DNA of 64,000 nucleotides from assembly GCA_965230425.1 (NCBI GenBank), contig CBDDKW010000008.1, positions 73,667 to 137,666 on the forward strand, in the 5' to 3' direction. The stretch is from Gammaproteobacteria bacterium (lineage in GTDB: Bacteria > Pseudomonadota > Gammaproteobacteria > UBA1113). Positions 1,861 through 47,255 of the stretch are shown here, piece after piece. The position numbers and the translations under genes are program-made. The notes below the pieces were generated by a model. It was not told where the DNA came from. It worked only from the letters and a program-made list of their open reading frames with translations, and searched no databases. Numbering within the stretch: the first letter of the stretch is position 1; each line of letters opens with the position of its first letter.

Positions 1861-1977
1861 CGAGCGCAGCGAGATATCCCCTGATGGTTTAGCGGGTGTG
1901 AACAAAGTATTGTTATACGTAGACAAATCATCGGGAGATTTCTCACTGCGGCTTACAGCCACAGTTCGAAATGACAA
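1861..1977. repeat. Dispersed intergenic MITE/REP-like repeat, copy A (truncated left arm plus full right arm: ...ggagatttctcactgcggcttacagccacagttcgaaatgacaa)
   Basis: Shares the core gtcatttcga / tggctgtaa(a)gccgc / gagaaatctcc / gatgatttg with copies at 34244-34382, 39084-39140 and 47138-47255. It is intergenic, upstream of hslV. Confidence 0.7.
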
Positions 1978-2067
1978 AATTTTTTTCAATAATAGCATAG
2001 TTGATGACAATACTTTTGCAGACTGTAAGGTATATGACGACAGTATTTGAAGCCATAGAAAATACTG

Positions 2068-2670
2068 CTATGCAAGGTCGCGTTTTAACAATAAACTGTT
2101 CAAATGTTCATCTTCTAACGCATGTTGGGCATGATTTGCCGCAGCAGTGGTTGTAAAAGGACCAATCATGACTCGGTACCAATGATTACCATGATGATCG
2201 ATATCTTTCACGGAAGCTTTATAGCCCTGTAGTATTAATCGAGCGCGTAGGCTATCCGCATCTTTATATTGTCTAAAAGAAGCTACTTGTAATAAATATT
2301 GATAATGAGCGTTATGTTGATCGATAGTGGTTTTACTTACCGATTTATCCATAGGAGCTGCTACTTTATCGGTATGTGAGTAGGTCACTTTTGTTTGTGG
2401 CAACATCTTATAGAAATCAAAATGGGGTTGTTTGTGATTATGATGGCTTTTGGGTTTATGGGATTTTTTTACGTGAGTATGATTTTCAGCGTATTGAGTA
2501 TGCTGTTCGGTTTGTTGTTGGTGGCTTTTGATATAGGTCAAGCCCGCGATAAACAACCCAATTAACAATCCTGTGATCAGCCATACTACCCCATGAGTCT
2601 GAGGTTTAGCTGTGCTACCACGTGACTTATTCGATTGTTTCCCTGTTGTCTTAGCGTAGTCTTTTGCCAT
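2068..2670 (-). CDS. SPOR-domain cell-division protein (DedD/FtsN-like), His/Gln-rich linker
   Basis: N-terminal TM helix (VVWLITGLLIGLFIAGL). The C-terminus (LLQVASFRQYKDADSLRARL...WYRVMIGPF) matches the SPOR peptidoglycan-binding fold. Confidence 0.65.
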   Translation of the reverse strand: MAKDYAKTTGKQSNKSRGSTAKPQTHGVVWLITGLLIGLFIAGLTYIKSHQQQTEQHTQYAENHTHVKKSHKPKSHHNHKQPHFDFYKMLPQTKVTYSHTDKVAAPMDKSVSKTTIDQHNAHYQYLLQVASFRQYKDADSLRARLILQGYKASVKDIDHHGNHWYRVMIGPFTTTAAANHAQHALEDEHLNSLLLKRDLA

Positions 2671-2672
2671 GA

Positions 2673-4439
2673 TTACATTGCTTCCGGTGCTGATACACCT
2701 AATAATTCTAGACCATTTACCAGAATATGTTGAGTTGCCTTGATTAAATTTAAGCGCGCATTACGTAATGCCGCATCATCTACCAAGAATTGATGAGCAT
2801 TATAGTAGGTATGGAACTCATTGGCCAATTCTCGCAGATAGTGAGCAAGCAAATGTGGCTCATAGTTTAGCGCGGCGGCTTGTAATAATTCCGGATAGTG
2901 AGTGAGCTTTTCAATGAGACTTTTTTCATGATCTACCAGTAATAAATCCAGATTCTCGCTGCCTTGCGCTTGATCCCATTCTAAGCCTTTATCCGCTAGT
3001 TGACGGAATATGCTGCAAATCCGTGCATGGGCATATTGGATATAGTACACAGGATTTTCTGAAGATTGTGATTTTGCTAATTCTAAATCAAAGTCTAAGT
3101 GCTGCTCGGCCTTACGCATGGTATAAAAGAATCGAGCGGCATCTTTGCCTACTTCTTCGTAAAGTTCGCGCAAAGTAATAAACGAGCCGCTACGGGTGGA
3201 CATTTGTACTTTTTTGTCGCCACGATATAAAACGGCAAACTGGACAATGGGTATATCGAATTTATCAGTAGGTTGGCCTAAGGCCGCTACTGCAGCTTTA
3301 ATACGAGAAATATAACCGTGATGATCGGCACCAAAGATATCGATAAGCCGTTCAGCACCACGCTCGAACTTTGTTAAATGATAGGCTGCGTCCGAGGCAA
3401 AATAAGTCGGCCGTCCGTCACTGCGCAGTAGTACCCGATCTTTATCATCACCAAATTCCGTAGCTTTAAACCATAAGCCACCTTCTTTATCATAAGTATG
3501 TCCGGCAGCTTTTAATTTATCGCAGACATGGGTAATGGCATCTTCATCAACCACACGCTGCTCTGAATACCATTCATCAAATATAACCCCAAAATCGGCT
3601 AAATCTTCACGGATGCCATCGAGAATGGTGTTTAAGCCAAGCTGATGCACCGCGTGGTAACTATTTTTACCTAACATAGACTTAGCGCGTTCAATTAAAC
3701 CATCGATATGCGCTTCTTTATCGCCACTGCCATCTTCTTGGCTGTCTAATGGAATGTTTTCAAAGACTTCTGAGGCAGGCCAGACTAGGCTATCGGCATG
3801 GTTTTTTTGTATTTCTAGCGCCATGTCTTTGACATAATCACCTTGATAGCCGTTTTTAGGAAAGCGAAACTTTTCACCAGCTAACTCTAAGTAGCGTAAC
3901 CAAATACTGGTGGTAAGAATATCCATTTGTCGACCGGCATCATTGACGTAGTATTCACGGTGAACGTCAAAGCCAGCCGTGGTAAGTAAATTTGCCACGG
4001 CGGCACCATAGGCTGCACCACGGCCATGGCCTACATGTAATGGCCCTGTGGGATTAGAAGAAACAAACTCTATATTTATTTTTTCATTATTACCTACTTG
4101 AGAATGGCCAAAGTCTTTGCCAGAAGCGAGAATGGTATTAATCACACTGTGTTGAGCAGTTTCATTCAAATAGAAGTTAATAAAACCAGGACCGGCGATT
4201 TCAATTTTTTCCACAAAGTCTGCTGTGGGTATGTGGTCAATAATTTGTTGTGCTAAATCGCGAGGCTTAGCCTGATTAGGTTTAGCTAAGATCATGGCAA
4301 TATTACAAGAGAAATCACCGAATTGCTTATCACGGGTGCGGTCGATCTGTACTTCAGCAGCATTGGGATTGCTGATCATGTTTTGTTCAGACAGTCGCTT
4401 GACTGTGGTTGTTAGTAAATGTTTGAGTTGTTCTTTCAT
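2673..4439 (-). CDS. argS: Arginine--tRNA ligase
   Basis: 588 aa with a class I HIGH-type motif (PTGPLHVGHGRGA) and MSTRSG (KMSKS-like), plus DALR anticodon-binding-like C-terminus. Confidence 0.93.
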   Translation of the reverse strand: MKEQLKHLLTTTVKRLSEQNMISNPNAAEVQIDRTRDKQFGDFSCNIAMILAKPNQAKPRDLAQQIIDHIPTADFVEKIEIAGPGFINFYLNETAQHSVINTILASGKDFGHSQVGNNEKINIEFVSSNPTGPLHVGHGRGAAYGAAVANLLTTAGFDVHREYYVNDAGRQMDILTTSIWLRYLELAGEKFRFPKNGYQGDYVKDMALEIQKNHADSLVWPASEVFENIPLDSQEDGSGDKEAHIDGLIERAKSMLGKNSYHAVHQLGLNTILDGIREDLADFGVIFDEWYSEQRVVDEDAITHVCDKLKAAGHTYDKEGGLWFKATEFGDDKDRVLLRSDGRPTYFASDAAYHLTKFERGAERLIDIFGADHHGYISRIKAAVAALGQPTDKFDIPIVQFAVLYRGDKKVQMSTRSGSFITLRELYEEVGKDAARFFYTMRKAEQHLDFDLELAKSQSSENPVYYIQYAHARICSIFRQLADKGLEWDQAQGSENLDLLLVDHEKSLIEKLTHYPELLQAAALNYEPHLLAHYLRELANEFHTYYNAHQFLVDDAALRNARLNLIKATQHILVNGLELLGVSAPEAM

Positions 4440-45934: not shown

Positions 45935-46031
45935 ATTTTAATGTTAATATATATGTTAACCTTTGTAAAGTACAAGACACTTAAATCATTGTTAAGTATA
46001 CTTGCGTAATGATGCTAGTATGGAGTGCTAA

Positions 46032-47108
46032 ATGACAACAAATCACGATATTATCTTTGAAGAAATTTCCGGTAATGGCGGTAGTGTTGGACTCATTACC
46101 CTCAATCGCCCAAAGAGTTTGAATGCCTTAACCCATGCTATGTGTTTAGCACTGGATAGCAAGTTAGCATACTGGCAGGATAGCAAGCATATAAAAGCCG
46201 TCATTATCCGTGGCGCAGGGGAGAAAGCCTTCTGTGCCGGTGGCGATATCCGCCACATTTACCAAAAGGGTAAAGAGCACGGTATTGAAGAAGCACGCCA
46301 ATTCTTCCATGATGAGTACCGTATGAATCATCGCATTCATAATTTCACTAAGCCTTATATCGCCTTACTCGATGGTATTACCATGGGGGGAGGCGTCGGC
46401 GTCTCCATTCATGGCAGCCACCGCGTTGCCACAGAGCGATTTTTATTCGCTATGCCTGAGACCGCTATTGGCTTCTTCCCTGATGTGGGTGGTTCTTATT
46501 TTCTTTCACGTTTGGCGGGTGAGCTAGGTATTTACCTAGGTTTAACCGGTACGCGATTGAATGCCAGTGATGCCATGTTTGCTGGCTTAATTAACGAGTT
46601 TACTTCTAGTGTACATGTGCATGAAATTATTGATGCCATTGCTGGAACTAATTTTTCAGAAGAAGCAAAAGAGCGTGTAACGCATATCTTACATGAATTT
46701 TCAGTAAAGACTGAATTATCTGAACTTGCCACTCATAGTCATCAAATTGATGAATTTTTCTCTGCCGATACAGTTGAAGCAATCATAACTCGCTTAGAAC
46801 AGGATAATAAACCCTGGAGCCAAAAGGCTTTATCACAGTTAAAAACAAAATCACCTACTAGTATGAAAATTACATTACGTCAGATCCGAGAAGGCGTTGC
46901 TTTAAATTTCGATAGTTGCATGCAAATGGAGTATCGACTTTGCCAGCGTATTTTAGCTGCTCACGATTTTTATGAAGGTGTACGCGCTGTACTACTTGAT
47001 AAAGATAACACACCCATATGGCAACCAGCAACGCTAGCAGAGGTAGATGAGGCGACTATTGATAGTTATTTTCAGCCTTTAGAGGAAGGTGAACTGCTGT
47101 TTAATTGA
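46032..47108 (+). CDS. 3-hydroxyisobutyryl-CoA hydrolase (crotonase-fold, HIBCH)
   Basis: 358 aa with crotonase-fold motifs (ITLNRPKSLNALT, AVIIRGAGEKAFCAGGDI, IALLDGITMGGGVGVS). It is larger than a hydratase, with the typical HIBCH C-terminal extension. Confidence 0.85.
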   Translation: MTTNHDIIFEEISGNGGSVGLITLNRPKSLNALTHAMCLALDSKLAYWQDSKHIKAVIIRGAGEKAFCAGGDIRHIYQKGKEHGIEEARQFFHDEYRMNHRIHNFTKPYIALLDGITMGGGVGVSIHGSHRVATERFLFAMPETAIGFFPDVGGSYFLSRLAGELGIYLGLTGTRLNASDAMFAGLINEFTSSVHVHEIIDAIAGTNFSEEAKERVTHILHEFSVKTELSELATHSHQIDEFFSADTVEAIITRLEQDNKPWSQKALSQLKTKSPTSMKITLRQIREGVALNFDSCMQMEYRLCQRILAAHDFYEGVRAVLLDKDNTPIWQPATLAEVDEATIDSYFQPLEEGELLFN

Positions 47109-47137
47109 TAATACGCTGTTATAAATACGACAGTGTA

Positions 47138-47255
47138 TTGTCATTTCTAGCGTAGCGAGAAATCTCCCGATGATTTAGTGAACATGAACAGAGGTTTATT
47201 CTAAGTAGTCAAATCATCAGGAGATCCCTCATGCTTCACATTCGGGATCTCCTGA
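47138..47255. repeat. Dispersed MITE/REP-like repeat copy with an internal deletion in the left arm and a diverged right arm
   Basis: Left arm ttgtcatttctagcgtagcgagaaatctcccgatgatttag. Right arm gtcaaatcatcaggagatccctca... It lies 30 bp after the HIBCH stop. Confidence 0.65.

Follow-up and report, generated by a model that had tools for sequence, protein, structure and literature searches.

Two superfamilies of repetitive extragenic palindromic sequences (REPs) have been distinguished by their tag, GTAG or CGTC (Di Nocera, De Gregorio and Rocco, BMC Genomics 2013, PMC3733652). The CGTC superfamily comprises families CGTC-1 to -4, whose tag is often TGTC and also CCTC; the stem is continuous (8–9 bp), almost always opens with a complementary AT, and carries a 4–5-nt loop and a short tail of CCA consensus. 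Head-to-head dimers with the tags outside prevail, as homodimers and heterodimers with spacers of 20–100 bp that often have complementary ends, and they lie near 3′ ends between convergent or unidirectional open reading frames (ORFs). They occur in five phyla including Bacteroidetes, are abundant in Sphingomonadales, and coexist with GTAG repeats in Coxiella. No dedicated transposase was apparent for these repeats, the enzyme that makes or moves them was left open in 2013, and bulged repeats may have been missed by that survey (PMC3733652). Here we analyzed a 64,000-nt stretch of gammaproteobacterial DNA (contig CBDDKW010000008.1; the whole stretch is called the window), in which seven related arms occupy four intergenic sites as three inverted dimers (A, B, and D) and one single arm (C). 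We classify these elements as TGTC-tagged REPs of the CGTC superfamily and as a new, lineage-specific family, filed on architecture with stem and loop lengths outside those of the class. The best explanation, to which we lean slightly, is that they are ORF-less derivatives moved in trans by a GIY-YIG nuclease of a type that is nested in such dimers in other bacteria.

Structure and spread of the arms

Arms were sought in the window with an nhmmer arm profile and with a covariance model (CM) of the arm core. The profile gave exactly seven matches (E 7.5e-19 to 3.7e-4), the CM recovered the identical seven arms and no others, and a 21-nt core with up to 3 mismatches matched 4 times, against 0.00 expected from shuffles. 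Direct reading, the profile, and the CM all placed the four copies where an earlier note on this DNA had listed them. Its description of a REP-like dispersed family also holds, as the copies consist of hairpin arms in inverted dimers plus a singleton, near gene 3′ ends.

Each arm reads as a TGTC tag, AT-xyz, GA, a variable stem-loop, GA, x′y′z′-AT, and a CTCC tail. It folds with the tag unpaired, followed by a 5-bp stem opening with A-T and T-A, a tandem G.A/A.G mismatch, and the variable distal stem-loop, with the tail at the end. Six of the seven window arms carry the TGTC tag and all seven have the A-T then T-A stem start; among 135 distinct arms, column pair 5–69 is AU in 128 and column pair 6–68 is UA in 132. 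The window arms add to the 5 bp and the GA/GA mismatch a distal stem of 2–9 bp, with loops of 3–4 nt. Arm middles are small stem-loops (CC-GAA-GG, GC-GCA-GC, AC-GCA-GT), up to a 9-bp stem in the long arms of the window. The tail is CTCC or CCCC and in dimers pairs with the tail of the partner arm, and the core-to-core spacers of the window dimers (51–52 nt) have complementary ends, CCGATGATTTGAC/GTCAAATCATCGG.

The arms had previously been described as about 50 bp long with some solo or internally deleted copies. Such a length is approached when the 12–16 nt of complementary spacer end (CCGATGATTTGAC) are added, the core itself being a hairpin of 29–43 nt. Copy C is indeed a single arm, whereas the left arms of A and D belong to a common 29-nt form and are not deleted; long arms have an extended distal stem (GTGGCTGTAA(A)GCCGC).

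Pairing within the arm is supported by covariation. When arms were defined by a regular expression that left both triplets free, xyz and x′y′z′ were complementary by Watson-Crick pairing in 74 of 88 arms from all fetched loci, in six types (TTC/GAA, TCC/GGA, CCC/GGG, CTC/GAG, TCT/AGA, and CCT/AGG). In 24 seed arms, 95.8% of cells were paired, with 29 double-sided changes compared to 9.2 in shuffles; sliding the partners brought pairing to 7.7–59.5%. The CM built from these seeds found 151 arms in the fetched DNA, all seven window arms included. Among 150 aligned hits, drawn from metagenomic, phage, and genomic contigs, 96.7% of cells were paired and 156 double-sided changes were counted compared to 44 in shuffles, although this alignment was fitted to the CM and is biased toward structure, unlike the count with free triplets. 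Within one dimer, the triplet or the middle often varies from arm to arm (in L007, L008, and L014 and in copies A and D of the window), yet each arm stays self-complementary; the conserved pairing is therefore within the arm and not between arms.

Two inverted arms with complementary spacer ends also form a long imperfect palindrome, for which an end-to-end fold is possible. In an alternative fold, three hairpins closed by the tag/tail pairs make a four-way junction, and the minimum free energy structure of copy D with DNA parameters is this three-hairpin form. The near-invariant GA…GA of the tag-first strand (TC…TC on the other) hints that the hairpin of one strand may be the one recognized. 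Two other structures were considered and rejected: a hammerhead core, suggested by CUGAUGA- and GAAA-like strings, on account of the strand symmetry of the element and of a motif order that does not suit such a core, and a K-turn or C/D box at the tandem GA for lack of a 3-nt bulge and of Rfam support. Neither the window nor 11 related loci had an Rfam match at gathering score; matches at E up to 10 were at chance level and none overlapped the elements.

We found the same arm type outside the window. A metagenome scan in which only the ends of a single arm were required gave 11 contigs (35–55% G+C), nearly all with a second, inverted arm close by, and a looser scan of viral contigs added 25 loci of 35–67% G+C. 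Restriction of the similarity to the window, which the earlier note had named as a refuting outcome, is thus not what we observed. Arms also occur singly, as in copy C, and in direct tandem. The related phage contigs L019, L022, and L035 have a common gene order with single arms in different intergenic gaps, and L005 and L012 share genes and differ in the number of dimers: at 4346–5013 of L005 a unit of about 199 nt, made of one REP dimer and about 125 nt of repeated flank, occurs four times in tandem, and L012 has fewer copies. A 67-nt dimer at 6072–6138 of L010, an unrelated contig of 49% G+C, lies upstream of hslV-hslU, the same kind of site as that of copy A. Contig L008, which bears a REP dimer, also has a group II intron domain at 3915–4164 (Rfam RF02005, 126 bits) with no apparent link between the two. 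Blastn of a plasmid collection with a window dimer and a short dimer gave no match. A scan of a genome collection with GAGRRATCTCCYGATGATTTR gave one match, in Sphingobacterium, which lacks the rest of the arm and was set aside as chance.

Copy C offers evidence of insertion. It lies, tag first on the sense strand, in a 123-nt gap between the stop of an acyl-CoA dehydrogenase gene (39057) and the start of an enoyl-CoA hydratase gene (39181). In the nearest relative (dehydrogenase 73% identical) only 11 nt, with a ribosome-binding site, separate these genes, and the CM found no arm in its 21-kb locus. The named database relatives of the dehydrogenase come from Gammaproteobacteria MAGs. The hydratase gene of the window (39181–39964) starts at ATG 39181 and changes frame in an eight-A run at 39209–39216; once corrected for frame, its product aligns end to end with the protein of the relative at 70% identity. 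The frame change may stem from a sequencing error, mark a pseudogene, or reflect a slippery run.

An empty orthologous gap would also be left by a classical MITE (a miniature transposable element with inverted repeats), a label that the earlier note had offered. On this account the copies are deletion derivatives of an insertion sequence (IS) encoding a DDE transposase, with TGTCATTTCGA as terminal inverted repeats; their small size, their intergenic location, and inverted ends that start with TG and finish with CA agree with it. We consider it very improbable. No target-site duplication was detected at 25 dimers (3 from the window and 22 related) nor at nuclease-bearing units. Single and tandem arms are present, and the covariation lies inside arms, not across them. 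Moreover, an all-against-all comparison of neighboring ORFs at the 36 arm-bearing loci revealed no common transposase, and no family common to them beyond closely related contigs.

A GIY-YIG nuclease gene nested in REP dimers

Only one of the 36 loci, L013, has a GIY-YIG gene, which encodes a 100-aa protein and lies between arms. Further nuclease loci were fetched from this protein by protein similarity alone. Arms were found within about 70 nt of the gene, which encodes an Slx1-family (UPF0213) protein of about 100 aa, in all 12 independent loci, spanning Bacteroidales, Sphingomonadales, and other high-GC contigs. In 8 of the 12, the gene lies exactly inside a tags-outward dimer.

In Bacteroidales, three of four further independent loci (L042, L045, and L048) are nested, the ORF being enclosed by a tag-first arm upstream and an inverted arm downstream. 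About 24–34 nt separate the left arm from the ATG, and the right arm follows the stop at 2–20 nt. These units are inside operons, between trpD and trpC or within a glycyl-radical enzyme/activase pair, and ORF-less dimers adjoin the nuclease loci. L041 and L013 are rearranged, with arms still around the gene. The same CM matches the window arms (16.5–44.3 bits) and the arms that flank the Bacteroidales genes (20–47 bits).

A scan of viral contigs with a single Bacteroidales GIY-YIG protein found no relatives, and an alignment query detected three homologues, 45–48% identical, on the high-GC contigs L056, L057, and L058. In L057, a contig of the viral collection, CGTCATTCCCGCGAAGGCGGGAATCCAG and its inverse exactly enclose the ORF; whole dimers adjoin the ORF in L056 and L058. 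The homologues of the L057 protein belong to Sphingomonadales, where four independent loci (L059/60, L061, L062, and L063–68) also have the nested unit. L057 and the Sphingomonadales loci share one arrangement (CGTCATTCCCGCGAAGGCGGGAATCCAG, 13 nt, the ORF, and CTGGATTCCCGCCTTCGCGGGAATGACG directly after the stop) in five unrelated genomic contexts; those in Sphingomonadales are beside recG, between msrA and rsmB, between prophage portal and terminase genes (L062, 1439–1864), and between genes for an outer-membrane factor and a molybdopterin oxidoreductase. The L062 unit is in a prophage, and arms were present in the phage contigs L019, L022, and L035, so these repeats travel in phage genomes too. 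From the differing contexts, the prophage, and the many short contigs, the nuclease gene is apparently multi-copy and mobile.

Nucleases of the Bacteroidales and Sphingomonadales clades are 32–39% identical. With a profile of both clades, 26,892 cluster representatives were matched at an E-value limit of 0.001, and 10,404 when the limit was 1e-10 (50%-identity clusters). Among the best 150 profile matches, 38 divergent members had over-long predicted N-termini, and 22 of these 38 carried REP-derived peptides there (translations of arms such as VIPAKAGIQ, SFPRRRESS, and ..RNDG), compared to 0.64 expected from shuffles. The nearest structures in the PDB are 1zg2 and 1ywl, both UPF0213 and both classed as bacterial Slx1-family members (Dunin-Horkawicz et al., PMC1564403). 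Eukaryotic SLX1 is reported to cleave branched DNA including four-way junctions. Since a REP dimer can form a four-way junction, this may be a recognition mode for an Slx1-family nuclease.

These loci of other bacteria make the nuclease a candidate enzyme for the CGTC superfamily. In the open-access text we found no paper linking GIY-YIG proteins to CGTC/TGTC repeats. In broader form, to which we give a little less than even odds, CGTC/TGTC REPs, those of the window included, would be non-autonomous and have as their partner a minimal GIY-YIG nuclease of the Slx1 family, encoded within a head-to-head REP dimer. Such a pairing would be a second system of REPs and nuclease, separate from HUH/Y1 transposases, present in several bacterial groups and in phages and acting maybe by structure-specific cleavage of hairpins or four-way junctions. 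The window copies are then most likely non-autonomous, ORF-less derivatives of a REP–GIY-YIG–REP unit, moved in trans by such a nuclease, which would be encoded elsewhere in the genome, now or formerly. The enzyme would recognize the tagged hairpin when the DNA is single-stranded or forms a cruciform and would nick near the tag, and the copies would spread, in parallel to REPIN movement, which is attributed to REP-associated tyrosine transposases (RAYTs). In this genome the copies would ride along in 3′ untranslated regions and in the spacers of operons, where any effect on mRNA (stabilization or processing) would be secondary.

Several results weigh against mobilization by the nuclease. No GIY-YIG gene was detected in the window, either by tblastn or by Pfam searches of 30 ORFs. 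The window arms lack the continuous 8–9-bp stem and 4–5-nt loop of CGTC REPs. The model of GA-type arms fails to detect the CGTC-1 arms of Sphingomonadales, so the superfamily link rests on the architecture common to both and on the nested nucleases, which are homologous. Stem mismatches of the G.T and A.C types are nearly balanced (14 vs. 12), giving no indication of a selected strand or molecule. Finally, an ORF that is always in or beside REP dimers is also expected of an insertion that targets REPs.

This last point leads to the main rival, in which the GIY-YIG gene is selfish and homes into REP-dimer spacers, much as REPs are targets of several IS, and the REPs are spread not by its product but by a different enzyme or by host processes. 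GIY-YIG domains are a typical feature of homing endonucleases of the free-standing kind (PMC1564403), and the insertion of units within operons and in a prophage would suit such a gene. However, the arm type follows the nuclease clade, GA-type TGTC arms going with Bacteroidales and CGTC-1 arms with Sphingomonadales. The distances from arm to ORF are also fixed (13 nt and 0 nt) across nucleases 70–78% identical to the query, in differing species and contexts; the arms therefore look like ends belonging to the unit. In addition, no alternative candidate enzyme is known for these repeats (PMC3733652). We regard homing as unlikely, while giving it more weight than any other alternative.

The design of the arms, hairpins with a 4-nt unpaired tag in inverted doublets, is like that of REPINs, and the window copies might be REPINs moved by a RAYT encoded elsewhere in the genome. 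The tag is TGTC instead of GTAG, no Y1 transposase is present in the window, and in species with both, no gene for a tyrosine transposase had CGTC-type repeats on its flanks in the 2013 survey (PMC3733652). A RAYT is thus, in our judgment, an improbable agent.

Taken alone, the window extends a repeat class known since 2013 by one lineage-specific family, which is ordinary. Of wider interest is the candidate enzyme to which its arms led for CGTC-type REPs, which lacked one in the 2013 paper. If mobilization by the nuclease is true, it would give a function to bacterial UPF0213/YhbQ-like proteins and a new enzyme class in bacterial repeat mobility, and a protein of 100 aa with a hairpin of 30 nt would be enough to test the question.

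Setting of the copies and other features of the window

The coordinates of the copies and of other features are collected in Table 1.

Table 1. REP copies and other sequence features of the 64,000-nt window
Feature	Position	Strand	nhmmer arm span	Description
REP dimer A, tags outward	1853..1976	.		nhmmer 3e-11 + 7.5e-19; CM 44.3 + 36.2 bits; fold z = -7.3
A left arm	1853-1881	+	1850-1893	short 29-nt form, ATC/GAT stem variant
A right arm	1934-1976	-	1923-1979	long form, extended distal stem
REP dimer B, tags outward	34245..34381	.		nhmmer 1.4e-16 + 2.2e-18; CM 22.7 + 27.5 bits; fold z = -7.8
B arm (+)	34245-34286	+	34242-34298	long form
B arm (-)	34339-34381	-	34327-34384	long form
Single REP C, long arm core	39085-39128	+	39082-39140	nhmmer 2.1e-17; CM 34.3 bits; own hairpin -22.2 kcal/mol
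C inner extension TGGTGGCTTGAC	to 39140	+		follows arm core
REP dimer D	47139..47253	.		nhmmer 5.1e-11 + 3.7e-4; CM 42.2 + 16.5 bits
D left arm	47139-47167	+	47137-47178	short form
D right arm	47219-47253	-	47208-47231	complete AT-CCC-GA...GA-GGG-AT hairpin, CCC/GGG variant, without TGTC tag
Giant ORF, 5455 aa	5682-22049	-		tandem repeat units of ~300 nt (~6.8–9.9 kb), weak leucine-rich-repeat match
Pentapeptide-repeat protein	22087-22926			adjoins giant ORF
Ankyrin-plus-patatin phospholipase	23007-25463			adjoins giant ORF
Repeat array	30181-30292			dense ~15-nt TTAAGTTAAAG-type repeats, direct and inverted
Tandem repeats	33222-33473			three 84-nt repeats, 81–85% identical
Inverted repeats	45527-45561 / 45656-45690			35 nt each, 94% complementary, 94 nt apart
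Tandem duplication	42798-42891			47 nt, 83% identical

Dimer A, whose spacer ends are complementary, lies 92 nt past the stop of a SPOR-domain gene and about 250 nt upstream of hslV, both genes being on the minus strand. Dimer B is flanked by convergent genes, with the stop of a hexapeptide gene 32 nt away and that of aroE 23 nt away. Dimer D is also between convergent genes, 30 nt past the stop of an HIBCH-like gene and 29 nt past the stop of ORF 47283–47948; its right arm has GGAG at the position of the tag. Thus B and D have a convergent setting at 23–32 nt from the stops, and A and C a unidirectional one, 27–92 nt past the upstream stop. This agrees with the earlier placement of the copies 3′ of genes or in the hslV upstream region. 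The G+C content of the window is 34–45%.

All four copies lie in transcribed gaps near the 3′ ends of genes, in two cases with convergent neighbors. Such a setting would also be expected if the repeats were kept mainly because they serve the host through RNA, in transcription termination, in attenuation, or by protecting mRNA 3′ ends. Such roles have been proposed in the REP literature (PMC3733652). The folding check proposed earlier was run and showed that copies A and B form very stable RNA hairpins (z -5.4 to -7.8). Co-option as terminators, which the earlier note had considered, receives no support: a terminator scan gave no site at the four elements, and none has a T-run 3′ of the stem. 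Stems show no G.U excess, and copy C is inside an operon whose orthologous gap is 11 nt with a ribosome-binding site. The family further spans several taxa (Bacteroidales, the gammaproteobacterial window, and contigs of 35–67% G+C) and phages, which argues for a mobile origin rather than a local invention. An RNA-level role as the explanation for these elements therefore appears quite improbable to us, a shade less probable than a RAYT.

Other features of the window were recorded. The giant ORF and the two genes that adjoin it form an effector-like set, which suggests an intracellular, Legionellales-like lifestyle. The 35-nt inverted repeats lie in a 258-nt gap between Gp49-like toxin and helix-turn-helix antitoxin genes and are unrelated to the REP family; this pair may be the other MITE family to which the earlier note alluded. 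The three 84-nt repeats are within ORF 32781–33554, which is Lys/Ala-rich and has no Pfam match. The array at 30181–30292, in the gap between AAA-ATPase and M3 peptidase genes, looks like a binding-site array. The 47-nt duplication extends from the 3′ end of ORF 42868–43839 into the downstream gap.

Comparison with described repeat systems

The Coxiella elements QMITE1 and QMITE2 are, like the window elements, small, non-coding, dispersed, and intergenic with inverted ends. QMITEs have direct repeats of 2–11 nt, and QMITE2 carries a GTAG REP (PMC5896051). The window elements differ in that they have no direct repeats and are made of TGTC hairpin units. Neisseria dRS3/NIME and Rickettsia RPE-4/RPE-6 have an ATTCCC...GGGAAT-type stem, like the arms of Sphingomonadales, with differing sequence subfamilies. 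Rickettsia RPEs are often intragenic, whereas none of the window copies is, and dRS3 is an integration site for phages and IS110-type elements. Both groups were placed in CGTC families by the 2013 survey (PMC3733652).

REPIN-RAYT systems resemble the window and related elements in the hairpin with an unpaired tag, the inverted doublets, and the lack of target duplication. Their nuclease gene is flanked by inverted repeats, as in the REP–GIY-YIG–REP units of other bacteria. They differ in having a GTAG tag and an HUH/Y1 transposase, where the present repeats have a TGTC/CGTC tag and, as a candidate, the GIY-YIG nuclease of about 100 aa, whose gene is apparently multi-copy and mobile. Compared with the REP–GIY-YIG–REP unit itself, the window dimers lack the ORF in the spacer, which is 51–52 nt long. 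The closest likeness is to CGTC REPs. The short 3′ tail, CTCC in the window arms compared to CCA, may be a further likeness, and the long arms with a 9-bp distal stem are a feature of the window. The tag variant, the A-T/T-A start of the stem, the tags-outward dimers, built of like or unlike arms, the spacer, and the location near 3′ ends are all shared by the window arms and the CGTC REPs.

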